The position numbers and the translations under genes are program-made. The notes below the pieces were generated by a model. The model worked only from the letters and a program-made list of their open reading frames with translations. It was not told where the DNA came from and did not search any database. A stretch of DNA of 64,000 bases from Candidatus Latescibacterota bacterium (lineage in GTDB: Bacteria > Latescibacterota > UBA2968): positions 3,872,001 to 3,936,000 of the forward strand of contig OZ244960.1 in assembly GCA_965222605.1 (NCBI GenBank), read 5' to 3'. Positions 9,492 to 40,365 of the stretch are shown here, piece by piece. Numbering within the stretch: position 1 is the stretch's first letter; each line of letters begins with the position of its first letter.

Positions 9492-9514
9492 TTAAAAATT
9501 AAATCTGTACTCTC

Positions 9515-9663
9515 GGATTTGGGTTGCAGTATAAGGGAAAACGGTGAAAATCCGTTGCGGTCCCGCCGCTGTAACTGGGGATGTTTCTTGCACTATGCCA
9601 CTGGTAAAAACCGGGAAGGCGCGAGAAGCATGAGACCCAGAAGCCAGAAGACCTGCCTGAATC
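9515..9663 (+). ncRNA. Cobalamin (B12) riboswitch
   Basis: AAGGGAA-ACGGTGAAAATCCGT-TGCGGTCCCGCCGCTGTAA, GCCACTG...GGGAAGGC and B12 box AGCCAGAAGACCTGCC; lies upstream of btu-like genes. Confidence 0.95.
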
Positions 9664-9744
9664 TTAGACCTTATTGATTTCCTCGTGGATTGGGAAAAGG
9701 TGAGATCATGCGTGCGTTTCGGCTTTTTATCGCGTACAGCTATG

Positions 9745-9796: not shown

Positions 9797-10915
9797 GTGT
9801 TGAATCTAAAAATATGGATACAGATGATATGTTGTATCGGGGTTTGGACCATACCTGTTCAGGCGCAATTGTCTTTGCAATATGCGCAGGGTTTTCGCGT
9901 TGATTATTTCGATGCGTACAGGGTTGTAACAGTGCTCGCGTCCGGGAGTGGAACACAAAAAAAGTTTCAGTATATCCTGGTGCAGCGCGGGGATAAGTCG
10001 CCCGATGGCTATGAAGGTGTTCCGAGAATAGAAATTCCCGTGCGGACTGTGATTACGACATCCACGACGCATCTGCCACATATCGAAAAGCTCGGTGAGA
10101 TTCATAGCCTGATTGGGATTGATAATATCAAGTACGTCAGTTCAGAGGCTGTCAACCAGCGCTTTGCGGCGGGTAAGTTGGCCGAAGTTGGGCGAGATAG
10201 GTCTATTGATTTGGAAAAAGTTCTGGTGCTTCAACCCGATCTCGTTATTACAGATTCGCAAGCGCAAGATAATGCCCTTGTTGCACTTCAAGAAGCGGGT
10301 GTGCCCGTTGTGATTAACGCTGCATACGCGGAACCTTCTTTGCTGGGACGCGTGGAGTGGATCAAATTTGTGGGTACTTTTTTTGATAAAGAAGGGCTGG
10401 CATCGGCCCAATTTGATAGCATTGTTGCGAGGTATGAGGCGCGCAGAGCTTTGACCCAGAATTTGCCGGCAGATAAGCGTCCCACTGTTTTTGTGGGGTC
10501 TCTCTGGCGCGGAACCTGGTTTATGTCTGGAGGAAAAACTTATGCCGCACAGTTGCTCAGAGATGCAGGGGCAAATTATCTGTGGGCAGATGATGGTTCA
10601 CAACAGAGTTTGGCGCTCGATTTTGAAACGGTTTACGAAAAGGCGCACGATGCGGATTGCTGGATCACGATGCGCAATGCGTGGTATTCTCGAGACGATG
10701 TTGTTGCCGAGGACGCGCGTTACAGAAAATTCGCGGCGTTCAAGACGGGGAATGTTTTCAATGCCAATGCGCGTCTCAATGCGCACGGGGGCAATGATTA
10801 TTGGGAAACGGGGCTTATTGAGCCAGATGTTGTGTTGGCTGATATTATTAAAATTCTACATCCCGACCTGTTGTTAGACCATCAACTCAAGTATTATCGA
10901 AAGCTCGATCCATAG
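9797..10915 (+). CDS. Cobalamin/Fe-siderophore ABC transporter substrate-binding protein (BtuF-like)
   Basis: Signal peptide, YAQGF, IPVRTVITTSTT, EPSLLGRVEWIKF, NDYWETG..EPDVVLADII.ILHP; riboswitch context. Confidence 0.85.
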   Translation: MLNLKIWIQMICCIGVWTIPVQAQLSLQYAQGFRVDYFDAYRVVTVLASGSGTQKKFQYILVQRGDKSPDGYEGVPRIEIPVRTVITTSTTHLPHIEKLGEIHSLIGIDNIKYVSSEAVNQRFAAGKLAEVGRDRSIDLEKVLVLQPDLVITDSQAQDNALVALQEAGVPVVINAAYAEPSLLGRVEWIKFVGTFFDKEGLASAQFDSIVARYEARRALTQNLPADKRPTVFVGSLWRGTWFMSGGKTYAAQLLRDAGANYLWADDGSQQSLALDFETVYEKAHDADCWITMRNAWYSRDDVVAEDARYRKFAAFKTGNVFNANARLNAHGGNDYWETGLIEPDVVLADIIKILHPDLLLDHQLKYYRKLDP

Positions 10916-10918
10916 CTT

Positions 10919-13114
10919 ATGAAAACGATGCGTTTTTTAATTTTTTTGATTCTTTGCGCGAATACGCCGCTTTGGGCAGCACAGATTGTTGGTCGCGTTA
11001 CTGATGCGGAGACCCGAATGCCCATCGCAAGTGTGCGTGTTCGCGTTCTCAATACAGATTTTGCGACGCAGACAGATGAGAGCGGGCGCTTTGTTTTTTT
11101 TGATCTGATGCCCGGTACTTATACGCTTTCTGTGACACATGTGGCTTACGGTGTGGGTCAACGCACGGTCCGCGTGGCCGAAACGGCTGAGGTTTTTATT
11201 GCGCTGTCTCACAGGACGCTTCCCCTCGATGAGTTTTCGGTGATTGCCGATCCGATAGGGGCCAGCGATATTCACAGGAATCCGGCGTATGCGACGGTTA
11301 TTACGCGCGAAAGTTTTGAAGGTAGAGAAACATCTTTGCCCGATGTATTGGCTGAAGCTACGGGCGTACACGTCAAACGCCTGGGTGGGTTGGGCACTTT
11401 TAGCACGCTTTCATTGCGCGGTTCATCAGCCGATCAGGTTGAGGTTTATCTCGATGGCATTTTGCTCAATACCGCTTTTGGTGGGGGAGTAGATCTCAGC
11501 AATTTGCCTTTGGCTCACGTCGGACAGATTGAGGTGTATCGCGGTGCAGGTGCTGGCGGCAATGGACTGGGTGGTACTGTGCATGTGCGCACGCGACGGA
11601 CGCAAAGGCGATGGTTTCATGGGATTCGAGGATCTTGGGGTGCTCTTGATACGCGGTTGCTGAGTGGGGTGTTCGGAGGCGGGTTTGGTCAGTCGGAGTT
11701 TCTCGTTGTGGCTGATTATGCACATAGCGATAACGATTTTGCATTTCTCGATGATAATGGCACGGAATACAATGCCGATGACGATGTTTGGAGCAGACGT
11801 CAGAATAACGATCATCGATCTTTCAATTTGTTGGGCAAGTGGCGTCGCGCTTTTGGGGAGGATAGAATTTTATCCATCCACGAGACCGCGCACTGGAAAT
11901 ATCAGGGCATGCCCGGTATTAGCAATAATCAGTCGCAGAATGCACATTTGGACGCTTTCCAGACGATGACGGAGATCGCTTATGAAGATCGCGTTCTGTT
12001 GCGGGGCGTGAATACGCGGCAATCGCTTTATGTCACGCATGTCAAAGAGCGGTTCCGCGATCTGGATGGCGAAATCGGGATTGGTCGCCAGGATAACGAT
12101 TATCTCACGCGCACTTATGGGTGGCAGGGCCGTTTGCAAACGGTTTTGTTTTCGCGCTGTGATATCGCGGCTGCGATTGGTTTGCACAGGGAGACTTATT
12201 TGCCCACGACGCGCGTCCGGTCTGTCGCCAATTTGTTCGATAGTCAGCGGTGGATTTTTTCCGCACGCACGGGTCTCGATATTTCTTTGCCAGGTGAGAT
12301 CGGCATCTGGTCTTTTGGCGCGGAACAACGGCGGATATACAGTTCGTTTACGGGTGCCAGTCCTTTTAATTTTTCGCCGTTCGCGCCCGATTCGGCCAAT
12401 ACGCGCAATCTCACCAGTCTGCGCTCAGGTGTGCGGTTAGATCTGGCATCTCATCTGATGTTTAAGGCCAATGCGGGGCGCGTATTTCGAGTGCCCTCTT
12501 TTTACGAACTTTTTGGTGATCGCGGCGGTGTGGTCGGCAATGTCAATCTCAGGCCCGAGTATGGTCTCACGTGGGATGCGGGTCTGCGTTATGCAGATGG
12601 GATGACTACCTTAGAAAGCGCGTTTTTTGACCATCGCTATGAGGATTTGATCCAGTTTGTTCACACGTCACAGGCTACGTCGCGTCCGGTCAATATCGGC
12701 AAAGCGCGTGTGTATGGGGTTGAAATGACCGCGCAAAGACGCTTTGGTTCTCGGGTCGATCTGTCGGGTAATTACACGTATCAAAAAGCTACCGATAAGT
12801 CCAATATCCCCCATTTGAATGGCAATATTTTGCCCAATCGCCCGCCCCACGCACTATTTGTTCGTGCGACGATGCGCCTGGGGCGCTGTACTGTGTTTTA
12901 CGATTATACGTTTGAAGATGGCAATTTTCTCGATCGGGCGAATCGGCGTCCACTATTTTCGCGGCATGTTCACAATGCGGGCGTGAAAGTGGATACGAGA
13001 TTGGGGTTTCACATTGGATTGGAGGTGAAAAATTTAACCGGGGCACAAATCGCCGATACCTGGGGTTATCCGCTGCCGGGCCGCGCGTTTTTTTTGAGTG
13101 TGAATGCGGATTAG
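10919..13114 (+). CDS. TonB-dependent outer membrane receptor, probably for cobalamin (BtuB-like)
   Basis: Signal peptide, carboxypeptidase-regulatory-like N-domain, plug SLRGS...V.VYLDGI, FRVPSFYELF, YPLPGRAF; riboswitch context. Confidence 0.88.
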   Translation: MKTMRFLIFLILCANTPLWAAQIVGRVTDAETRMPIASVRVRVLNTDFATQTDESGRFVFFDLMPGTYTLSVTHVAYGVGQRTVRVAETAEVFIALSHRTLPLDEFSVIADPIGASDIHRNPAYATVITRESFEGRETSLPDVLAEATGVHVKRLGGLGTFSTLSLRGSSADQVEVYLDGILLNTAFGGGVDLSNLPLAHVGQIEVYRGAGAGGNGLGGTVHVRTRRTQRRWFHGIRGSWGALDTRLLSGVFGGGFGQSEFLVVADYAHSDNDFAFLDDNGTEYNADDDVWSRRQNNDHRSFNLLGKWRRAFGEDRILSIHETAHWKYQGMPGISNNQSQNAHLDAFQTMTEIAYEDRVLLRGVNTRQSLYVTHVKERFRDLDGEIGIGRQDNDYLTRTYGWQGRLQTVLFSRCDIAAAIGLHRETYLPTTRVRSVANLFDSQRWIFSARTGLDISLPGEIGIWSFGAEQRRIYSSFTGASPFNFSPFAPDSANTRNLTSLRSGVRLDLASHLMFKANAGRVFRVPSFYELFGDRGGVVGNVNLRPEYGLTWDAGLRYADGMTTLESAFFDHRYEDLIQFVHTSQATSRPVNIGKARVYGVEMTAQRRFGSRVDLSGNYTYQKATDKSNIPHLNGNILPNRPPHALFVRATMRLGRCTVFYDYTFEDGNFLDRANRRPLFSRHVHNAGVKVDTRLGFHIGLEVKNLTGAQIADTWGYPLPGRAFFLSVNAD

Positions 13115-13153: not shown

Positions 13154-14386
13154 ATGAGATGGTTTTTAGTTGTTCTGTTTTTTGCATCAGAAGCACTGGC
13201 AAATCAGGCGGTTATTACGACGACGGATTATAGCAGTGGTAGTTTTTCGAGTATGGATCTCAGCACAAATACGGCAACGCACGATCATTTGACTATTCAC
13301 TCGGATGCGGCGGTGCGGACGTATCGGGATAAGGTGTATATTCTCAATCGTTTGAGACAGGATAATGTGATTGTTTTGAGTCGCAGTGATCTGAAGACGC
13401 CATTGACACAGTATTCGACGGGCAATGGTTCAAATCCGCACGATATGGCTTTTGTCAGTGAGGAGAAAGCGTATATTTCGCGGTATGAGCGCACGCAATT
13501 GCTAATAGTAAATCCCATTACGGGCGATTCACTGGGTGCGGTAGATTTATCGGCATTTGCAGATGCGGATGGTTTGCCCGAGATGAATCAGCTTGCGCTG
13601 TATGACAATTATTTGTTTGTCGCGTGTCAACGGCTGGATCGAGATAATGGATTTGTGCCGACGGATGTTTCGGTGATTGCGGTTGTCGATGTGATGACGG
13701 ATCAGGTGGTGGATGTGGATGCAAATACAGCGGGTGTGCAGGGGATTGTGATGGCGGGTAAGAATTCCGTGAGTGCAGATCAGCGGCATGACAAATGGAT
13801 TTTGAGCACTGTCAATTCATTTTCAGACTTCACCGATGGGGGTATTGAAGTTGTTGATTTGGAAAATTTGAGGAGCGAAGGTATTGTTATTGATGAGATA
13901 GCTTTGGGCGGCAATACAAATTCTTTAGCGATGATTTCTGACAACAAGGGGTATGTTGTTGTTTCAGATGCGAACTTTGTCAATGAGGTGAAAATTTTTG
14001 ATCTGACGAGGCAGTCTGTATCATCGCGTTTAAGCGGTGTCTCTGGTGGTTATATACCTGATTTGGGCGTATTCGGAGGGCGGTTGTACGTTTTGGATCA
14101 AGGGAGTTTTGTCGATCCGACATCTGCTGGGGTGCGGGTCTATGATGTGAAGACGGATCAGCTTGTGGCCGGTCCGATCAGTACGGGGCTGCCGCCTTCG
14201 GGTATTGCATTTGTGGGCAGTGTGGCTGATTTTAATGGCGATTGTGTGGTTGATTTTAGCGATTTTTTGGCTTTTGCTTCCGCGTTTGGGAAAATAGAGA
14301 GCGATGTCAGGTTCGATTTAAACGGCAATGGTTCGGTTGATTTTCCCGATTTTCTGATTTTTGTTTCGGAATTTGAAGGTGAATAA
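13154..14386 (+). CDS. Secreted beta-propeller (BtuG/YncE-like) with C-terminal dockerin-like double EF-hand
   Basis: Signal peptide, repeated blades ([18 protein letters not shown]), tail [17 protein letters not shown]...[17 protein letters not shown]. Confidence 0.7.
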
Positions 14387-14415: not shown

Positions 14416-14976
14416 ATGAGTGCCAGAAAAGAGACAGAACGCAAGCGGCATGTGAAAAAGGGTCTGGTGATGGTCAATACCGGAGATGGTAAGGGTAAGA
14501 CCACAGCCGCGCTGGGGGTGATGACCCGCGCATGGGGGCGCAAGATGCGCGTGGGCGTGATTCAGTTTTTGAAGCATGAGAATGCCAATTTTGGCGAGAT
14601 TCGCGCGGCCAGGCGCATGGAGATCGATTGGATTGGTACGGGCGATGGGTGGACGTGGACGAGTAAGGATATAGATGAGACACAGGCTCGGGCATTGCGC
14701 GGCTGGGAAGTGGCGCAGGAGCGGATTGTTAGCGGGAATTACGATCTGTTTATTTTGGATGAGTTTACGTATTTGATGGCTTTTGGCTGGTTGGATGCGA
14801 CAGAGGTGGTGGCGTGGTTGCGAGAGCACAAGCCCGAGATGTTGCATGTGATTATTACAGGACGCGATGCGCCAGACGAGTTGATGGATTTTGCCGATAT
14901 GGTGACTGAAATGCGCGAGATTAAGCATCCGTTTAGTGATCAGGGTATTGTTGCTCAACCCGGGATTGATTTTTAA
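14416..14976 (+). CDS. cobO: Cob(I)alamin adenosyltransferase (CobO/BtuR)
   Basis: [52 protein letters not shown]. Confidence 0.93.
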
Positions 14977-15033: not shown

Positions 15034-16044
15034 GTGGTGGTTGAAGCGATTCTTAAAACACAAAATCTCGCTGTGGGTTATAAACACGGTCGTCGTTCAT
15101 CTCGCGTTGTGGCTCGCAATATAGATGTGTCGCTCCGCCGTGGTGAATTTGTGTGTTTGCTGGGTCCCAATGGTGCGGGCAAATCCACGCTTATACGCAC
15201 GCTTGTGGGGATGCAGCCGCCGCTCGATGGGCATGTTTATCTTATGGGTAGAGATATCGCGGATATGTCTGCAACAGAAGTTGCACAGGTGCTCAGCGTG
15301 GTGCTCACAGATCGCATTAGTGTTGGTATTATGGCTGTGCGCGATTTGGTCGGTCTGGGGCGATATCCCCATACGGATTGGATCGGACGCTTTACCGATG
15401 AAGATGAACGGGTTGTTTCCTGGGCGATTCGGGCGGCCCGCGCTGAGGATTTGGCATATCGCAATGTGGCAGAACTCAGCGATGGCGAGCGTCAAAAGGT
15501 TATGATTGCACGCGCGCTGGCGCAGCAGCCCGATCTTATGATTCTGGATGAACCTACGGCTTTTCTCGATTTGCCGCGCCGCGCTGAAATCATGGCTTTG
15601 TTACAAGATCTGGCACATTCTACGGGTAAGGCGATTTTGCTTTCAACACACGATTTGGATCTGGCGCTGCGCTGTGCAGACCGTATCTATCTTTTGCCGT
15701 TTGAGGGCGCGTTGCAGACCGGTGCGCCTGAGGATTTAATTCTCAATGGTGCATTTGAAGGTGCGTTTCAGAGTGATGGCGTGCGTTTTGACGCAGATAC
15801 GGGTGCGTTTAAGCTCAATGCACAACGGGGCCGCGCCTCAGTTGCTGTTTCTGGGGAAGGGCGACGCGCGTATTGGACAAAGCGCGCGCTGGAGAGGGCC
15901 GGGTTTCGAGTGAGAGATGCGGGGGCTGAGTGGTGTGTCGATATTCGCGAAGGTGATACCTGGTGTGTTGAGCACAGTGGATCAGTTCGGGAATACGATT
16001 CTATTTGCGATTTGATTGCGGCACTGAAAAGCGATCATGGATGA
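15034..16044 (+). CDS. ABC transporter ATP-binding protein (BtuD/FecE-like)
   Basis: GPNGAGKST, LSDGERQK, LDEPTAFLD, STHDLD. Confidence 0.92.
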   Translation: MVVEAILKTQNLAVGYKHGRRSSRVVARNIDVSLRRGEFVCLLGPNGAGKSTLIRTLVGMQPPLDGHVYLMGRDIADMSATEVAQVLSVVLTDRISVGIMAVRDLVGLGRYPHTDWIGRFTDEDERVVSWAIRAARAEDLAYRNVAELSDGERQKVMIARALAQQPDLMILDEPTAFLDLPRRAEIMALLQDLAHSTGKAILLSTHDLDLALRCADRIYLLPFEGALQTGAPEDLILNGAFEGAFQSDGVRFDADTGAFKLNAQRGRASVAVSGEGRRAYWTKRALERAGFRVRDAGAEWCVDIREGDTWCVEHSGSVREYDSICDLIAALKSDHG

Positions 16045-17127
16045 ATGGGGGTGATCGGGATGGAGGCTCAAAACAAGGATGAAGCGCGAGGAGGATCGCG
16101 GCGTGCGGTTATTGTGCTGGGGTTATTTTTTCTGCTCCTGATCGCGTTCGGTTTGAGTTTGTCGCTGGGGTCGGTTCGTATTCCATTCGCAGGTTTGTTT
16201 GGCATTCTTACGGGTGGAGAAGTGTCTTCTCCGGCATGGGCGATTATTGTTCATACAATTCGACTGCCCAAGGCGATGACCGCTGTGTTGGCGGGTGCGG
16301 CGCTTTCTGTGAGTGGGTTGCAGATGCAAACGCTTTTTCGCAATCCGCTGGCAGATCCTTTTGTGCTGGGTATCAGTGCTGGCGCGAGTCTCGGCGTTGC
16401 TATTGTGGTGCTGACGGTGGGTTCGATTGGTAGTGCGCTTATCGCGGGGTTGGGTTTTCTGGGCGATTTGAGTTTGGCTGTTGCGGCTATTATAGGTGCT
16501 GCCACTGTGTTGGGGTGCGTGCTGCTAATTTCTCGCAGTGTGCAGAGTGTGATGACGTTGCTGATTTTGGGTCTGATGTTTGGGTATGCGACCGGAGCTT
16601 TTGTCAGTATTTTGATTTATTTTAGCGTTCCCGAACAAATTCAGTCGTATATTTTGTGGACTTTTGGCAGTTTTGGGAGTGTGACATGGCGACAGATGCC
16701 CGTGCTTGTCTCTGCTATTTTTTTGGGGCTTTTGCTGGCGTTTTTGTGTATTAAACCGCTCAATGCGCTTTTGCTCGGGGAAAATTATGCGCGCAGTATG
16801 GGTCTGAATGTCAAGCGCATCCGATTATGGATTTTGATCAGTGCATCGATTCTGACGGGCGCGACCACTGCTTTTTGTGGTCCGATTGCGTTTTTGGGTC
16901 TGGCTGTGCCGCATCTTTGTCGCAGTTTGTTGCATACGTCGGATCACCGCGTGCTTATGCCTGCGGTCACTTGTCTGGGGGCGACGCTGGCACTGCTATC
17001 CGATTTGATTGCCCATTTGCCGGGGAGTCAATTTGTTTTGCCGCTGAATGCAGTGACGTCCCTGATTGGCGCACCAATTGTAATCTGGTTTATTCTGTAT
17101 CGCAAAAATTTGAGTCAGGCGTTTTAG
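16045..17127 (+). CDS. FecCD/BtuC-family ABC permease
   Basis: IRLPKA, GLQMQTLFRNPLADPFVLGISAGA, LLLGENYARSMG, GPIAFLGLAVPH; start may be 16060. Confidence 0.92.
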   Translation: MGVIGMEAQNKDEARGGSRRAVIVLGLFFLLLIAFGLSLSLGSVRIPFAGLFGILTGGEVSSPAWAIIVHTIRLPKAMTAVLAGAALSVSGLQMQTLFRNPLADPFVLGISAGASLGVAIVVLTVGSIGSALIAGLGFLGDLSLAVAAIIGAATVLGCVLLISRSVQSVMTLLILGLMFGYATGAFVSILIYFSVPEQIQSYILWTFGSFGSVTWRQMPVLVSAIFLGLLLAFLCIKPLNALLLGENYARSMGLNVKRIRLWILISASILTGATTAFCGPIAFLGLAVPHLCRSLLHTSDHRVLMPAVTCLGATLALLSDLIAHLPGSQFVLPLNAVTSLIGAPIVIWFILYRKNLSQAF

Positions 17128-27495: not shown

Positions 27496-27561
27496 TGCTG
27501 GGTGGGCTGATGGCTGTTGACATATATGTAGCCTCCTGTTATATTGGTTTTACTAATAATA

Positions 27562-27639
27562 TCTGACGCAACTGGCGAATATCCGGATAACCGGAGGGGA
27601 GCGTTAGAACTAAAAATTCAAGGGGTCGATCGCCTGGGC
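27562..27639 (+). ncRNA. ZMP/ZTP (pfl) riboswitch
   Basis: P1 TCTGACGC/GCGTTAGA, ACTGGCGAA, CCGG.TAACCGG.GGGGAGC, A-rich linker, 3' CGCCTGGGC; upstream of purH. Confidence 0.9.
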
Positions 27640-27668
27640 TCAATCCGTTAGAGGATTGGGCTTTTTTT
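27638..27668 (+). terminator. ZTP riboswitch terminator
   Basis: GCTCAATCC-GTTAGA-GGATTGGGC followed by a T run; overlaps the aptamer 3' end. Confidence 0.85.
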
Positions 27669-27688
27669 CTTTTCAAGAGGATTGTCTT

Positions 27689-28864
27689 ATGTCTCAAGAT
27701 GGACTGATTCTTCGCTATGGTTGCAATCCGCATCAATCTGATGCGCGTGCGTACTCTCTTGATGGCAAATTGCCTTTCGCGGTGCTCAATGGCGCGCCGG
27801 GTTATATTAACTTGCTCGACGCGCTCAATTCATGGCAACTCGTGCGCGAGCTTAAAGAGGTGCTCAATCTGCCAGCGGCTGCTTCTTTTAAGCACTTAAG
27901 CCCTGCTGGTGCGGCTGTTGCCGTTCCCATTTCCGACGCGCTGCAACGGGCGTATTTTGTCGATGATTTCGATCTTTCGCCTCTGGCTACGGCTTATGCC
28001 CGCGCTCGGGGTGCGGATAGGCTTTCTTCTTTTGGCGATTGGGTGGCTTTAAGCGATGAGGTGGATCAATCGACTGCGCGCTTGCTCAGTCGCGAAGTGT
28101 CCGATGGTATTATTGCGCCGGGCTATCAACCGGAGGCATTCGATATTCTTAAGAAAAAAAAAGGCGGCAGTTATGTCATTCTCCAGATGGATGAATCGTA
28201 CGCGCCTGCTGGCCCGGAAACCCGCGATGTTTTCGGCGTTGTTCTGGAACAGACGCGCAATGCCAGGACTGTTAACACAGATATTCTCACGAATATTGTG
28301 ACAAAGAATAAAGAGGTCTCTCCCGAAGCACAGCGCGATATGCTCGTGGCGACTATTGCTCTTAAGTACACGCAATCCAATTCGATGTGTTTTGCCTTTG
28401 ATGGGCAGGTTATCGGCAATGGCGCGGGGCAGCAAAATCGCCTGGCCTGTACGGACATTGCCGCGGGAAAGTCCGAGGCGTGGTACTTGCGCCAGCATTC
28501 GGATATTCTCGATTTCAAATTTAGAAAAGGTCTCAAACGCCCCGAGAAGATCAACGCTATTGAAGCCTATTTGCGCGGCGATATGACTCGTGAGGAACGT
28601 CGGGTTTGGGAAGCGTGTTTCGATACTGTGCCCCTGCCTTTGAGCGAGGACGCGCGGCGAGCGTGGATTAGACAAATGGACGATATTGTGCTCAGTTCCG
28701 ATGCGTTTATCCCTTTTCGAGACAATATTGATCGGGCTGCTCGCACGGGTGTCAAATATGTGGTTGAGACCGGAGGTTCAGTGCGCGACGACGATGTCAT
28801 CGCAGCTTGCGATGAATACGGTATGCTTCTGGTTATGACCGGGGTGCGTTTGTTCCATCATTAA
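27689..28864 (+). CDS. purH: AICAR transformylase (short PurH without the IMP cyclohydrolase domain)
   Basis: LRYGCNPHQ, GYINLLDALN, SFKHLSPAGAA, KYTQSN, SDAFIPFRDNI, GGSVRD, RLFHH. Confidence 0.92.
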   Translation: MSQDGLILRYGCNPHQSDARAYSLDGKLPFAVLNGAPGYINLLDALNSWQLVRELKEVLNLPAAASFKHLSPAGAAVAVPISDALQRAYFVDDFDLSPLATAYARARGADRLSSFGDWVALSDEVDQSTARLLSREVSDGIIAPGYQPEAFDILKKKKGGSYVILQMDESYAPAGPETRDVFGVVLEQTRNARTVNTDILTNIVTKNKEVSPEAQRDMLVATIALKYTQSNSMCFAFDGQVIGNGAGQQNRLACTDIAAGKSEAWYLRQHSDILDFKFRKGLKRPEKINAIEAYLRGDMTREERRVWEACFDTVPLPLSEDARRAWIRQMDDIVLSSDAFIPFRDNIDRAARTGVKYVVETGGSVRDDDVIAACDEYGMLLVMTGVRLFHH

Positions 28865-35099: not shown

Positions 35100-37709
35100 T
35101 TATCCATTGATCGGTTTGCCATAAGAATTCACAAAGATAAGGAAATCAGAAAAGCCAACCTCTCCATTGCCATCGAGATCGAATTTTAGATCGAAGTTCT
35201 CCTGTCCGCTGTGGGTTCCAAACGCATGAACAAAAGCCAAAAAGTCTTCGAACGCGACCTGCCCATCACCATCAAAATCGGCAGAAATAAGGGGAGTATC
35301 GCTTACCTCAAAGCGGATGATTTCAGTAAAGTTCGCCCGAAGAATGTTATAGGCTTTATCATATACTTGCATTTCAGCCAAACCCCATGTTCCGGGGATA
35401 CTACCAACAGGCAAGATGACTGTGTGATGGTAGGTTTGGTACACCGTCGGCTCTCCAGAAAAATAGATATTGGAATAACTCGGTTCTGGTACATAATGTC
35501 TAAAGTCTCCGTGCATTACGCCTTGGGGATCGCGTAAATACATGCGTGCTTCACGATATCCGCTGATATTATCTAGGACTATAAAAGTAATATCAACTCG
35601 GGTTTCGCCATTTGGTGCTTCTGGATGTGTCGGCACCGCCTTGATGGTGATTCGGTTGAGATCGAGCACAGGCGGTATGGTATCTGGATTTGTCGTCTGG
35701 ACCTCAATCGTGGCTGGTAACTCATCAATCGCTATGTCTTGGTCCCTTAAATTGTGTCCAGGATCGGTAAAATAGACAACGCGCACGTTTCGTGCTCCAT
35801 CCTCCATCCTGATATAGTTAAGTTTGTACATCCCGCCTGGAAAATAGTCCGGAATCACAAGTTTACAAACCGCTTCTCCAGTTTGTAGATCATATTCTCC
35901 ATAGTCCTCCGAGCGACGTGAATAGGTTTCGGCATTGGCATCGTTCAGTCGTGCCAAGACGCTCTTAACATCGTTTTTTTCATCAAGTCGCCAACGAGCG
36001 GCAACAACTTGATAAGGTCTGCCATTTTCCTCGCGTTGTGATAGCGAAAGTTGCATAGAATTTCTGATATATTCTGGTGGTTCATAATCTGCAAGTGGAT
36101 TGTTGATATAGAGTTTCCATCCAAAATCGGTCTGGGATTCGTGTCGCTCATTGCGCTGGGCATCTCTCAAGGTAATTTGTTCTGGAGCCCAGTATCCATG
36201 TGCTACGTACTTCGATAATGTTTTATTTCCTCGCAAAATATGACTCGCATCTTCTCTCCCAAGACGCTGACCATTGGGGCCTGTAGGATAAAGCCGAAGG
36301 TCAAAGTAAGTGCCTTTGTCGCTGTATATCCTGACATCTGACCATTGGGCTTTATCAAGGTCGCCTGATTGGTGAATTTCAATCTCTATTGTTATCTCCT
36401 TATCTTCTTCCGGTTCGCCCTCAACCTGTATATCAACCCGGATGATCCGACCCGGATACACGACATCCGGATATAGATTATATACCTCAAATGTCAAATC
36501 AGGACGGATGCGCGATATGTAGCGCGTGCCGTGCATGACCCGATCCCGAATAAATTCGTATTTGGCAGGAGAACGTGAACGTAATTTATCCGGGTTCACA
36601 ATGTAATAACTGATACTTTCTGCCATATCCTCATTCGGATTTTTCTTGTGTGCATAAGCAGATACAAACTCGGTCTGCTTGGTCGTTGACCAGCCGTCAC
36701 TATCATCGGGGTTTATATACCACCCACCAAGCTCAATCCAATCCTGTTTGAGTTGATCGTCGAAGAGGTGCGCCCATAAAAAATGTGCCTTTTCATGGAG
36801 GATTAAGCGGTGGATGTAGTCGAGTCCTTGTTCCTTAAACGCAGATTCCATAAACTCAATATAGCCCTCGCTCGGCCAGGCTATAGCTGGAGCAGTCGGG
36901 TTAATCGGATGAGGTGTCCCATCTAATCGCCGCACCAGATATTGCAGCCCTGGTGTGCTGAGCAGGCCCTGTGGATATTCTTCAAACATGCTTACAATAG
37001 CCATCAATTCCTCGTTCTTGAACTCTCCAAACCGACCTGCATCTTCCTTCGTTGTTCTTCGCGTGAGTTCGGTATAGTCCGGTACATCTATACTTATGCC
37101 ATAGCGTTTCTCTAAAATCTGCTTCAGTGCGCGTCTATCTCTGCCATCATCGGTTACATAACGCACTATTGCATGGTGTAGTCTTTTAGAAAAGAAACGA
37201 CCTCTTACTCCTTCTATTTGGGCCAGCGCAGGCTCGGCATAAGTAAAGGCTTCAAGAGCTACGGTGACTATTTTTTGCCCTTCTCGAACTTCGATTTCTA
37301 TATCATTTTGAATATGCTGGTCTGATAAGCGCCACAGCGAGTGGGGAACCGTTAGAGTTTCTTCTCGAAATTCATTGCTTGGTTGTGGTATAGAGTCAAA
37401 GGTTTGGAGTAATCGGTAAGCCTGACCGTCACTCCATTCGGTGCCGAGTAATACGGAATATTGTTGCATGAGACGCAGGGACGCACTGTGCGGCACGACC
37501 TGTATTGGCTCGTCTAAGAATAGTACCTGCACGGGTTGAACGAGGTTTACTGAGTCCGCTCCCTCGAAGGTCGTATCGGTTTTCCAAGTATAAGAGTATT
37601 GTGCAAAAGCGGGTCCGCTGAAAATGAATACGATCAGGAGGACAACACTACTCAGGTAGGTAAGTTTTTTGGTTTTCTCAGAGCTGTTTTGATATGTCTT
37701 TTCTGCCAT
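35100..37709 (-). CDS. Secreted zinc-metallopeptidase-like protein with Ig-like repeats and C-terminal dockerin-like double EF-hand
   Basis: Signal peptide (PAFA-Q), ILHEKAH..., FVSAYA..NPNEDMAES, tail ADFDGDGQVAFEDFLAF...FDLDGNGEVGFSDFLIF. Confidence 0.7.
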   Translation of the reverse strand: MAEKTYQNSSEKTKKLTYLSSVVLLIVFIFSGPAFAQYSYTWKTDTTFEGADSVNLVQPVQVLFLDEPIQVVPHSASLRLMQQYSVLLGTEWSDGQAYRLLQTFDSIPQPSNEFREETLTVPHSLWRLSDQHIQNDIEIEVREGQKIVTVALEAFTYAEPALAQIEGVRGRFFSKRLHHAIVRYVTDDGRDRRALKQILEKRYGISIDVPDYTELTRRTTKEDAGRFGEFKNEELMAIVSMFEEYPQGLLSTPGLQYLVRRLDGTPHPINPTAPAIAWPSEGYIEFMESAFKEQGLDYIHRLILHEKAHFLWAHLFDDQLKQDWIELGGWYINPDDSDGWSTTKQTEFVSAYAHKKNPNEDMAESISYYIVNPDKLRSRSPAKYEFIRDRVMHGTRYISRIRPDLTFEVYNLYPDVVYPGRIIRVDIQVEGEPEEDKEITIEIEIHQSGDLDKAQWSDVRIYSDKGTYFDLRLYPTGPNGQRLGREDASHILRGNKTLSKYVAHGYWAPEQITLRDAQRNERHESQTDFGWKLYINNPLADYEPPEYIRNSMQLSLSQREENGRPYQVVAARWRLDEKNDVKSVLARLNDANAETYSRRSEDYGEYDLQTGEAVCKLVIPDYFPGGMYKLNYIRMEDGARNVRVVYFTDPGHNLRDQDIAIDELPATIEVQTTNPDTIPPVLDLNRITIKAVPTHPEAPNGETRVDITFIVLDNISGYREARMYLRDPQGVMHGDFRHYVPEPSYSNIYFSGEPTVYQTYHHTVILPVGSIPGTWGLAEMQVYDKAYNILRANFTEIIRFEVSDTPLISADFDGDGQVAFEDFLAFVHAFGTHSGQENFDLKFDLDGNGEVGFSDFLIFVNSYGKPING

Positions 37710-37786: not shown

Positions 37787-38995
37787 TTAGTCGCGCTCGT
37801 TCATAAAGGTATCCACTGCGGGGGTGACGACCTTTATGAAACGCCTGAGTGTATCAGCCAGGGATTTGGCGAAATCGTCGTTCAGTTCATGACTACCGAA
37901 ATCAACCTGGACGATCCGTCCCTGTCTGCCTCGACGGTCTAACCTTTGGCCTTTTTGGATATCCAGATTATCCAGGATGTTTTTCAGTGAATCGCTTTCA
38001 CCAACAGAAAGGTTGCCGATTTTCCCTTGTTTGTCGAATGAGTATCTGATTGCGACGAGTGCATTGTTGCAGAATTTTGTGTCCAGGGATGGGTCGAGCT
38101 CGATTTTGTAGAACAGTTGCCAGTTTTTCCAGGGCTGCCTTGAATACCATAAGTGGTAGTAGCGGTGGCCTTGCTTGTGTACAGATGCATATTGGCTTTT
38201 GCCATTCGGTTTGATATCATCAGGTAGTCCGTCAGTAGCCAATGTTGCGACTTTCTTTACAAAATGCGTCACGTTATCATTTCTGAGTGGGTTGCTACTT
38301 CGCATTGAGCGGTCCTCTCGTGCCGCAGGTTTCTTTCCTTCTGCCGTATCGCTACTCTTGATGTCGTAATCTTCTATTTCGGGCATGGTATCGATTCCAT
38401 ACAGCTTGAAATATTTTTCTATTTCTTGCCCCAAACGACGCTTGGCATAATCATCTATTCTTCCTATGAATCCCGAAAGAACGACTGCAAAATCGTGCTT
38501 GCCATTTTGAACGGTATATGAAGTATGTTTCTGTCTTGTAGTCTCAGGTGGATATAACTGACATAATTTGCGGCTTACGTCTGCGCCATTACAGATAATA
38601 ATCTTCGGTTTGTACGTTTCAATCTGTTGTTTCAAATACCCACTACAGTTGGCGATGATTTCCTTCCTACCACCTCTTTGCATTGTTTTGGGTGGAAAAT
38701 TGTTGGAGTAACACTTTACTAAATCTGTATGTGCGACGCCATTGGGGTGGCCCAGAAGTTTATGGAGGTCTGGAGAGACTTTCTTGAAATCATTAAAATA
38801 TCCGTGAACGTTATTGCTTTGAAAATATTTTCTCAATTGGATGATGTCACCCTCGTCATTATACCCTTCAGCACCCCTGGGGTTGAGACCTATTATCCAA
38901 ACAGGTGCTTCACTTGCACCAACAATTGATTCTATGGGAGAATATTTTCGCTGAAAAAAGAGGCCATGTTTTTTACACTTCAAGCATTTTTCCAT
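37787..38995 (-). CDS. Uracil-DNA glycosylase-like domain fused to an unknown C-terminal domain
   Basis: CLKC, VWIIGLNP, TDLVKC, NCSGYL.QQIE..KPKIIICNG. Confidence 0.65.
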   Translation of the reverse strand: MEKCLKCKKHGLFFQRKYSPIESIVGASEAPVWIIGLNPRGAEGYNDEGDIIQLRKYFQSNNVHGYFNDFKKVSPDLHKLLGHPNGVAHTDLVKCYSNNFPPKTMQRGGRKEIIANCSGYLKQQIETYKPKIIICNGADVSRKLCQLYPPETTRQKHTSYTVQNGKHDFAVVLSGFIGRIDDYAKRRLGQEIEKYFKLYGIDTMPEIEDYDIKSSDTAEGKKPAAREDRSMRSSNPLRNDNVTHFVKKVATLATDGLPDDIKPNGKSQYASVHKQGHRYYHLWYSRQPWKNWQLFYKIELDPSLDTKFCNNALVAIRYSFDKQGKIGNLSVGESDSLKNILDNLDIQKGQRLDRRGRQGRIVQVDFGSHELNDDFAKSLADTLRRFIKVVTPAVDTFMNERD

Positions 38996-39024
38996 TGAGT
39001 GCTCGCTTTTGTTTAAAATGATGC

Positions 39025-40272
39025 CTACACTTCTTGTAGAGATTTGGCGGCAAAAATGGTCAAGCGCAATTCTTCGTCGAACAATTCATAAACAGGCGTT
39101 TGACCGCTGAGGGTCTCGCTTTCGTTTAAGATGATGCCCACGCCTTCGCCCCGTCGTTCCAAAAAATGTCGCCGGATTACTTGTCTGCTCATTGTATCAT
39201 GCAAGGTGATTTCCGAGAGTAAGCGGGCGAGCAATTCATTGCGGGTGGCTTGTGCATAACGCAAATTTTCCACTGTTATGGTGTTTGCCAACGCGCCAGG
39301 CGAATATAGTTCGAGTCTGTCTGAAAACATGAACAACCGAATTTTCGAGCCGATTTTTGAGTAATCTCTGTGTACAACGGCGTTCACCAGGGCTTCAAAA
39401 ACGGCTCGCATGCTGTATTGTGGCCGTTCAATTCTGCCAATGTCTTTGCGTGCTGATACCTCATTGAATTTTTCGACAAATTTGAAGGCGTCTATGATCT
39501 GTTGGTCCAGGGGCCCCTTAAAATCTTTGGCATCGATCTGGTAGTTCGCATCCTTTTCTATCCCTCGATAAAAAACAGCTTGAATGAAACTGTTGTAGAG
39601 GTACTCATCGGGACTGTCATGGCACATTAACACACCTGCGACCGATGCGCGATATTCTCCCCCTTCTTTCACGAGCAAACGCCTTTTGAGTAGCAGGTCT
39701 TCGTCCTCATGGTTGAAGACGCCTGTGGGGATAAATCGCTGATAGAGTTCTCGCCTTAGTGTGTCTTTATTCGTGTTCGGCACGAACTGTTCGTCAAAAG
39801 AGATAATACGCGCCTGTGAACGAGCTTGTAGCAATCTGCCCAATTGCTCTGTTGTCATTTTGCGCCTGGTATCTCCTTGTCGTAAAAAGAATCCGTTGCT
39901 GCTTTGATGTGCCCACAAGCTCCGTGCAATATTGATATAAACCAGTGTTTTTTGTTCTCCCGTCTCATCGGGAACCCGGATACTATCTACGAAATAATCT
40001 ACGAGAGGAGGTTCTACCAGGTCGTGGCATATCTCCGTAATAAAATGAATCAGTCTCGGAACATTTTCGATATCGATACCGAGGATTTCCCGATTATCAG
40101 AAACGCCGAAAATCACGACTCCCCCTTGCTGATTGGCAAAAGCGGCGATCTCATCGGACAGCCCATCCCGATGCGGCCTGAATTGTCCACCAACAAGTTT
40201 TACTTCTTTGAACTCAACACCGGAGCTTTCTCCCGATTCAATTTTTTCCAAAATTTCCTGTTCGCTGAGCAT
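39025..40272 (-). CDS. Schlafen/AlbA_2 domain plus RecG-C/HATPase-like protein
   Basis: GESSGVEFKE, IAAFANQQGG.VIFGVSD, EALVNAVVHRDY, SPGAL, RNELLA, ERRGEGV. Confidence 0.85.
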   Translation of the reverse strand: MLSEQEILEKIESGESSGVEFKEVKLVGGQFRPHRDGLSDEIAAFANQQGGVVIFGVSDNREILGIDIENVPRLIHFITEICHDLVEPPLVDYFVDSIRVPDETGEQKTLVYINIARSLWAHQSSNGFFLRQGDTRRKMTTEQLGRLLQARSQARIISFDEQFVPNTNKDTLRRELYQRFIPTGVFNHEDEDLLLKRRLLVKEGGEYRASVAGVLMCHDSPDEYLYNSFIQAVFYRGIEKDANYQIDAKDFKGPLDQQIIDAFKFVEKFNEVSARKDIGRIERPQYSMRAVFEALVNAVVHRDYSKIGSKIRLFMFSDRLELYSPGALANTITVENLRYAQATRNELLARLLSEITLHDTMSRQVIRRHFLERRGEGVGIILNESETLSGQTPVYELFDEELRLTIFAAKSLQEV

Positions 40273-40365
40273 ATCAATTCTCCAGATGAATACGCTTGTC
40301 ACATGCTCAAACGCCCTCTGACTACCCTTTATAATACTGAATTTCCACTACCGCCAAAGAGGACC

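Follow-up and report, generated by a model that had tools for sequence, protein, structure and literature searches.

A dockerin-family module on a BtuG-like propeller of a Latescibacterota bacterium, and its candidate cohesin partners

The window analyzed here, 64,000 nucleotides of a Candidatus Latescibacterota bacterium (assembly GCA_965222605.1, contig OZ244960.1, positions 3,872,001 to 3,936,000 of the forward strand), encodes a beta-propeller protein with a short C-terminal module, which also ends a second protein of the window. The propeller resembles BtuG of Bacteroides, a surface propeller which captures vitamin B12 and passes it to the receptor BtuB (according to the available parts of PMC6143338 and PMC10404256). 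The locus raises the question of what would keep such a propeller at the cell surface when it carries no lipid, and what the shared module, hereafter the tag, has to do with it. The original prediction saw in the tag either a dockerin-like device, docking diverse non-cellulolytic cargo to a scaffold in place of a lipid anchor, or a sorting signal. The features concerned are:

13154..13201, + strand: signal peptide of the propeller protein, residues 1-16 (...EALA before NQ), no Cys; read from the sequence, cleavage site inferred
13205..14215, + strand: BtuG-like beta-propeller domain, residues 18-354; AlphaFold2 predicted local distance difference test (pLDDT) 96-98, Foldseek, family profile
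14225..14377, + strand: dockerin-family double calcium-loop module, residues 358-408, short-linker subtype; BLASTP to the second tag, 108-tag alignment, profile against solved dockerins
35100..37709, - strand: second tag carrier, a secreted 869-residue HExxH protein, putative zinc metallohydrolase; open reading frame (ORF), sub-cut-off matches to Peptidase_Mx1 and TIGR04549
35121..35282, - strand: dockerin-family module of the HExxH protein, residues 810-863, long-linker subtype; BLASTP, tag alignment

Both ORFs are open, the first (13154-14386, +) encoding a propeller protein of 410 residues, with a Shine-Dalgarno-like AGGAGG 8 nt 5' of the ATG at 13154, and the second (35100-37709, -) a protein of 869 residues with an HExxH motif at residue 305 (nt 36783-36797). 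Aligned with each other by BLASTP, the two proteins shared a sole significant stretch, residues 358-407 of the propeller protein with residues 810-863 of the HExxH protein (30/54 identical, 56%, E 3e-13). A second alignment (E 0.001) paired the first repeat of one tag with the second repeat of the other, and the remaining ones all had E >= 7.8. The tag consensus proposed originally was correct, and only the tag aligns between the two carriers, which had been described as unrelated. The name peptidase given to the second one is putative only, as it scored 18.8 bits on Pfam Peptidase_Mx1 (cut-off 25.6) and 17.8 bits on NCBIfam TIGR04549 (cut-off 75). It has a tagged paralogue at genome positions 2556095-2558689.

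Both proteins have a signal-peptide-like N-terminus. The only cysteines are at positions 158 and 364 of the propeller protein and at 615 of the HExxH protein, and because none is close to the N-terminus, neither protein has a lipobox. With no Cys before residue 158, the propeller lacks what makes BtuG a lipoprotein, in agreement with the original prediction.

The tag and the propeller

A hidden Markov model (HMM) of the tag, seeded on the two window copies, was run in repeated rounds against the ORFs of all six frames of the genome, a single contig of 6.34 Mb that is 98.7% complete. It converged on 108 modules in 108 ORFs, far more than chance would give, and an abundance which fits the docking proposal. 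The alignment of the 108 copies shows a twofold repeat, in which a loop D-x-[DN]-x-[DN]-G-x-[VI]-x-x-x-D is followed by F-L-x-F-x-x-x-F-G. The propeller's tag has two tandem calcium-binding loops, each followed by FLxF, which is the two-loop arrangement of the ~60-residue dockerins (PF00404). The calcium-ligand and helix positions D359, F360, D370, F371, F374, G379, D388, L389, D396, D399, F400 and F403 were invariant in 50 orthologues.

When a profile of 103 copies was searched against all PDB sequences, the best match was the dockerin 2y3n_B (E 4e-14, over 61 residues), followed by the dockerins 4wi0_B (E 8.7e-12) and 4u3s_B (E 1.9e-11), with 5k39_B and 2b59_B lower; the best non-dockerin EF-hand protein had an E of 5.8e-9. 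Pfam Dockerin_1 (cut-off 22.9 bits) was passed at E <= 1e-5 by at least 12 of the 57 ORFs that carry the tag at their C-terminus (best score 38.5 bits), a lower bound because it covers only the 25 families listed per protein. Two points weigh against docking by way of the propeller's tag. This tag itself stayed below the curated cut-offs, with 18.3 vs 22.9 bits on Dockerin_1 and 26.9 vs 29 bits on its best NCBIfam match, dockerin_GC (NF041540, GC-type dockerin domain-anchored protein, E 4.6e-6). Its linker, moreover, is shorter by 4-6 residues, the mark of a subtype common to nine C-terminal carriers; among these, a recognizable catalytic domain was present in a sulfatase, a subtilase and an M10 peptidase joined to a YncE-like propeller, and another carried DUF1501. 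Judged from sequence, the tag is a dockerin-family module, in which a helix comes after each of the two EF-hand-like calcium loops, and this bears out the dockerin-like character first ascribed to it.

The propeller gene lies in a B12 operon with the order riboswitch, btuF, btuB, propeller, cobO, btuD, btuC:

9504..9674, + strand: cobalamin riboswitch aptamer heading the operon (Rfam RF00174, 114.5 bits, gathering score 31.5)
9797..10915, + strand: BtuF-like periplasmic binding protein (Pfam Peripla_BP_2, E 2e-27)
10919..13114, + strand: BtuB-like TonB-dependent receptor with an N-terminal CarboxypepD_reg domain (Pfam Plug and TonB_dep_Rec_b-barrel)
14416..14976, + strand: ATP:corrinoid adenosyltransferase, CobO/BtuR (Pfam CobA_CobO_BtuR, E 8.8e-62)
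15034..16044, + strand: BtuD-like ABC ATPase (Pfam ABC_tran, E 3.8e-29)
16045..17127, + strand: BtuC-like FecCD permease (Pfam FecCD, E 9.8e-77)

The best NCBIfam match of the receptor was TonB-B12 (TIGR01779), with 144 bits, below the cut-off of 599.7.

As a single sequence, the propeller matched BtuG chains weakly (E ~1e-3). An 85-member family profile matched BtuG3 with E 2.6e-12 and BtuG2 with ~5e-9, the next being WDR5 with 1.8e-5; the matched PDB entries are BtuG2 and BtuG3 according to the data-availability section of the BtuG paper. The AlphaFold2 model of the propeller protein had a pLDDT of 88.6 overall. In a Foldseek search of the PDB with this model, all 14 rows listed at ranks 1-16 were BtuG1, BtuG2 or BtuG3 (best e.g. 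8okv_A, E 4.1e-16, TMt 0.81), with TMt values of 0.73-0.81; only 8blw_B, a BtuG1 chain of 626 residues, was lower (0.43). Counting against the homology, the sequence identity to the BtuGs is only 15-17%. Profile and model together indicate a distant BtuG homologue, for which corrinoid binding is predicted, so that the original description of a BtuG-like propeller in a B12 operon stands.

Compared with BtuG1/2/3 of Bacteroides thetaiotaomicron (PDB 8OKV, 8BMX, 8BLW, 3DSM), the window propeller has the same best-matching fold, profile-level homology and a gene next to that of a BtuB-type receptor, under a cobalamin riboswitch and with btuFCD. It differs by its low identity, by the dockerin module which it carries at the C-terminus instead of a lipobox at the N-terminus, and by its host, a member of the Latescibacterota.

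The propeller family comprised 2,039 cluster representatives at E <= 1e-3. A TonB-dependent receptor was encoded directly 5' of the propeller in 22/22 loci, Nitrospirota and Granulosicoccaceae records included, and a cobalamin riboswitch lay 5' of it in eight of the nine loci scanned, the ninth being cut at its 5' end. The family looks like a distant counterpart of BtuG outside the Bacteroidota. By the BlastP criteria of the 2018 eLife BtuG paper, in its available part, BtuG homologues occur only in Bacteroidetes. Pieces of the operon were matched, mostly at 90-95% identity, by contigs of four RNA libraries (three studies), which in two of the four runs reached the tag region; these contigs come from relatives and are no proof of transcription, and no more than 5-8% of the sampled words were present in each run.

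Anchors, tag positions and cargo

The same propeller carries other anchors in other lineages. Among the best 150 of the 2,039 family representatives, one had the tag, 48 had a type IX secretion system (T9SS) C-terminal domain (CTD) and 35 had a strict lipobox without an extension. The rest were other full-length proteins (27, several with a lipobox-like Cys), proteins with N-terminal extensions (15) and fragments (24). In Pfam, FlgD_ig, sometimes together with Por_Secre_tail, was found at E <= 0.01 in 13/13 extensions tested, 11 of which passed the curated cut-off. One CTD-bearing form came from metagenome-assembled genomes (MAGs) of Latescibacterota, and a lipobox form from MAGs of Deltaproteobacteria and Spirochaetota. 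The tag itself was kept in 15/15 complete Latescibacterota orthologues, at 73-100% identity. Since relatives have either a lipobox or a T9SS CTD on this propeller, the tag fills the position of known surface anchors. In this Latescibacterota order, then, the dockerin module most likely replaces both the lipid and the T9SS CTD on the propeller, much as had been foreseen for the lipid.

The expansion of the tag is a trait of the order. All 30 relatives sampled from two families of the same order had 45-125 tag matches each. At E <= 1e-8, among 30 genomes of the phylum from outside the genus, 13 had none, 15 had one to six and two had 26-28. The original label "lineage-specific" therefore suits the expansion, with 41-125 copies in each genome of the order vs 0-6 in 28/30 genomes outside the genus and 26-28 in the other two, and does not hold for the module itself.

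Within the genome, 57 of the 108 tags are C-terminal (<=25 residues from the stop, most <=3), 31 stand immediately behind a signal peptide and the other 20 lie within the protein, 15 of the latter directly behind an N-terminal cohesin-like module of ~135 residues. With 51/108 copies N-terminal or internal, the tag is not purely a C-terminal sorting signal, and this option of the original prediction lost its ground. A crude hydrophobicity rule, applied without modeling of gene starts, flagged a signal peptide in 29/31 N-terminal, 16/20 internal and 40/57 C-terminal carriers. For nine of the last 40 the chosen start lay in or just before the tag, leaving at most 31/57 that are credible.

According to Pfam, the 57 C-terminal carriers included 10 WD40 proteins, 14 with He_PIG/PKD Ig-like domains, fn3 and cadherin-like proteins, a leucine-rich repeat (LRR) protein that also has a chondroitinase B domain, a PL8 lyase, a sulfatase and an NHL/FG-GAP protein. 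Peptidases were represented by an S8 subtilase with FG-GAP repeats and the M10 peptidase with the YncE-like propeller. Sixteen of the 57, both window proteins included, had no family at E <= 1e-5, and no cellulase-like family was listed among the 57, so the cargo is as diverse and non-cellulolytic as had been supposed.

Some of the tagged genes are clustered. Arrays of six and nine He_PIG/PKD Ig-like ORFs were found at genome positions 778410-792637 and 3455859-3474786, each ORF ending in a near-identical tag. The ORFs are spaced by 0.7-1.8 kb, and a credible start is missing in many; giant genes that have broken up, or cassettes in repeat, may lie behind these arrays. One pair of genes recurs at three places (698847-702028, 2781132-2784025 and 3390738-3394014). 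Its first gene encodes 230-248 residues with an N-terminal short-linker tag, and its second, of 605-830 residues, a cohesin-like module, a tag and a further C-terminal part, which is an LRR in the one of the three that was scanned.

Candidate cohesin partners

Dockerins bind cohesins in cellulosomes, and Pfam Cohesin matched eight places in the genome, four of them at or above the cut-off of 24.1 bits (24.1-37.1 bits). We distinguish three types of module. Type B comprises five cohesin modules, with a T9SS type-A sorting domain directly behind each (own HMM, genome search). Three of the type B carriers are minimal, paralogous proteins of ~268 residues, which contain nothing beyond a signal peptide, a cohesin and a CTD:

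2787078-2787917 (genome): minimal cohesin-CTD protein, type B
85724-86566 (genome): minimal cohesin-CTD protein, type B
6190333-6191166 (genome): minimal cohesin-CTD protein, type B

The other two type B cohesins are in ORFs of 1336 and 1564 residues, in the order dockerin-cohesin-CTD; in these large ORFs Cohesin was matched in the genome-wide search and was not listed in the per-protein Pfam scan. One minimal protein scored 24.2 bits on Cohesin, 47.1 bits on FlgD_ig and 34.1 bits on TIGR04183 (cut-off 23). The AlphaFold2 model of this protein had a pLDDT of 84.2, and nearly all of its top Foldseek matches in the PDB were cohesins, e.g., 2w1n, 3kcp, 2xdh (a non-cellulosomal cohesin of Archaeoglobus, TMt 0.64) and 5nrm (0.70), with the exception of a Vpr fibril at rank 2. 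With 24.2-37.1 bits on PF00963 (cut-off 24.1) and, in the one modeled, a cohesin fold, the type B modules are clear cohesins as far as prediction goes. Their wider family is widespread, a search for it giving 4,121 matches, partly via the CTD; the best 120 were all 207-365 residues long, mostly 266-270, and, where they had a name, were called hypothetical protein or T9SS type A sorting domain-containing protein.

Type A consists of fifteen N-terminal modules, each fused to a tag, in proteins of 527-3,090 residues. Type C consists of seven to eight modules in five ORFs, including a 699-residue protein (two modules and a CTD) and the 1336-residue ORF. On their sequences we call both of these types cohesin-like only.

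The original prediction had suggested looking for cohesin-containing scaffoldins. Cohesin modules do exist and co-occur with the tag (see below), whereas we found no classical many-cohesin scaffoldin of proven cohesins in the genome, the clear cohesins being single modules fused to T9SS sorting domains. The closest approach to a scaffoldin cluster is at genome positions 2627272-2638095, where three consecutive genes for CTD-bearing proteins of 699, 1336 and 1564 residues were found. The first two encode two to three type C modules each, and the last two a dockerin and a type B cohesin.

To follow the co-occurrence, tag and type B cohesin were searched in the same 41 genomes. The cohesin was present in 10/10 genomes of the same genus. 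Outside the genus, it was found in 7/7 genomes with at least three tags, in 3/10 with a single tag and in 1/13 with none. Tags and type B cohesins thus co-occur across the phylum; the kin among these genomes are not independent, and the pattern spans at least five families. A complex predicted for the cohesin of a minimal protein (residues 20-180) and the propeller tag (350-410) scored 0.02 against a mark of 0.32, which, with no controls, is no evidence either way.

Several of these results speak against a cohesin-dockerin pairing. The 15 type A modules reached only 18.6-23.8 bits on Pfam Cohesin and the type C modules had no Pfam match, while hhalign related A and C with an E of 2e-4 (probability 46%), A and B with an E of 0.05, and B and C not at all. 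The ratio of 108 tags to five clear cohesins is lopsided, and seven of the ten sampled single-tag genomes had no type B cohesin. The last two observations would suit a calcium-binding module that has no cohesin partner and instead stabilizes secreted proteins or binds glycan, matrix or host material. Dockerin-like modules without cohesins are reportedly common outside cellulosomes, as Peer et al. are said to have described in 2009. We nevertheless hold this explanation to be unlikely, considering the 15 proteins in which a cohesin-like module is fused directly to the tag, the CTD-linked cohesin in every sampled genome with three or more tags, and the best profile matches of the tag, which are solved cohesin-binding dockerins.

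Proposed docking, export and surface display

The reading that we favor, with a little better than even confidence, is that T9SS-sorted cohesin sockets hold dockerin-tagged proteins at the surface, the B12 propeller included, in place of a lipid anchor. In a first step, cohesin proteins with a T9SS type-A sorting domain, among them the three minimal ones, would be exported and fixed on the outer membrane. Dockerin-tagged proteins would then plug into the cohesins in a calcium-dependent manner. The proposed cargo comprises the B12 propeller, the HExxH protein and ~100 others, with WD40, Ig-like and LRR proteins, chondroitin-type lyases, a sulfatase and peptidases. Docking would keep the B12 binder at the surface, close to the BtuB-like receptor.

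The secretion genes agree with the first step in part. The T9SS type-A sorting domain (TIGR04183/PF18962) passed its cut-off at 14 places, all five type B cohesin carriers included; overall the genome has 14-16 type-A CTDs, five or six of which belong to cohesin or cohesin-like carriers. A SprA homologue passed its cut-off in the genome search. The search for GldM (TIGR03517) was uninformative, with no match in the genome and none in the controls either.

Other points count against the docking model. The PorV-like (155 bits vs 250) and PorU-like (237+72 vs 420) proteins were below their cut-offs. No secretin (PF00263) was found in the genome, which encodes many secreted proteins, in a search that matched in six control genomes, and no T2SSK was found in the genome. 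The tagged proteins have Sec-type signal peptides only and no CTD (only two of ~108 tagged ORFs have one of their own), and could be periplasmic. The lipid anchor of Bacteroides sits beside BtuB in a tight lid complex, as described in the available part of PMC10404256, and a C-terminal tether to a separate anchor would have another geometry.

One route would extend the docking model and does not exclude it. The tag could bind a cohesin-CTD carrier already in the periplasm, and the pair could leave via SprA by piggy-back export, with the passenger staying docked. This would account for the nearly complete lack of own CTDs among the ~108 tagged ORFs, for a SprA homologue without secretin or T2SSK, for three proteins made of signal peptide, cohesin and CTD alone, and for relatives with a CTD in cis on the same propeller. 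We nonetheless find it rather improbable, given that only 14-16 type-A CTDs would have to serve ~108 passengers that the signal-peptide calls are heuristic, and that other export routes may serve. To our knowledge, no piggy-back transport by the T9SS has been described. Taken to its end, the idea would make the dockerin a detachable T9SS passenger tag on minimal cohesin-CTD adaptors, with one sorting domain serving ~100 cargoes without a secretin. This version is about as improbable; if true, it would explain the swaps between lipid, cis-CTD and dockerin anchors in the propeller family.

The tagged propeller might also stay and work in the periplasm, e.g., as a second B12 binder, as its Sec-type signal peptide and the lack of a detected secretin would allow. 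We give this little credence, for the operon already has a BtuF-like periplasmic binder, the clear cohesins carry export domains, and the homologues of the propeller are T9SS-CTD carriers or, in Bacteroides, surface lipoproteins (PMC6143338, available part). Least probable is a C-terminal signal for secretion or sorting that a translocon would recognize directly, a reading to which the 57/108 C-terminal copies and the T9SS CTD at the tag's place in relatives would be suited, but against which stand the 31 copies after a signal peptide and the 20 internal ones, the dockerin fold family, and the lack of a dedicated translocon gene next to tagged genes. The 33 PorV-like open frames of the genome (most ~320-360 residues, all below the NF033710 cut-off) were no closer to tagged genes than random (median 31 kb vs 30 kb; 8 within 10 kb vs 7.9 expected).

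The best PorV-like gene (155 bits) is the first of three in a row at genome positions 1504701-1510147. It is followed by a gene for a protein with an N-terminal tag and one for a homologue of the T9SS-dependent M6-like inactivated metalloprotease with a CTD (368.8 bits, cut-off 600). In the window, the HExxH gene is adjoined at 37787-40302 (-) by genes for a 402-residue protein with a uracil-DNA-glycosylase-superfamily domain and for a Schlafen/AlbA_2-HATPase_c_4 protein, which may be a defense-type pair. A ZMP/ZTP riboswitch was found at 27558-27646 (+; 56.5 bits, gathering score 39), just 5' of the ORF 27656-28864.

With cellulosomal pairs (the Pseudobacteroides cellulosolvens Cel48 dockerin-cohesin 2Y3N and the Clostridium thermocellum type II pair 2B59), the system shares the duplicated calcium loop and helix in ~60 residues and, as modeled, the cohesin beta-sandwich fold of the partner candidates. 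It differs from them in its diderm host, in the T9SS sorting domains that come after the cohesins, in a cargo other than cellulases, and in that 31 dockerins are N-terminal and 15 directly behind a cohesin-like module. Cellulosomes use SLH or sortase anchors.

A cohesin-dockerin-T9SS system is already of a known kind, as a cellulosome-like system with a T9SS CTD was predicted in Ca. Stygibacter of the Cloacimonadota (PMC8542988). In the available part of that paper, enzymes with signal peptides and C-terminal dockerins, an S8 peptidase included, are combined with a cohesin protein that, bearing a T9SS CTD, is inferred to attach to the cell surface. Its scaffoldin is described there as one protein of 3,755 residues with many cohesins and carbohydrate-binding modules, whereas the cohesins here are single, three of them on 268-residue minimal proteins, and ~108 dockerins serve a cargo that includes a nutrient-capture propeller and many repeat proteins. 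For Latescibacteria, cellulosome-affiliated enzymes are attributed to Farag et al. 2017 in the available text of PMC7081726. In a literature search that did not extend to subscription journals, we found no paper joining BtuG and dockerin, and nothing useful on dockerins in Latescibacteria or on dockerin plus cohesin in Poribacteria or sponge symbionts. The novel elements are a BtuG-like nutrient binder that bears a dockerin, a single family that swaps among three anchors, the scale across the whole genome, and an export route still to be explained.

If the docking model is true, B12 capture of the BtuG type would not be confined to the Bacteroidota. Lipid, T9SS CTD and dockerin would be exchangeable as anchors of surface nutrient binders, which would offer a natural experiment on the contribution of the anchor to transport. 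The missing export route makes the exit of the tagged proteins from the periplasm a testable question. A diderm lineage would be using the cohesin-dockerin pairing as a general surface display for ~100 proteins, many of them eukaryote-like repeat proteins or chondroitin-type lyases and one a sulfatase.

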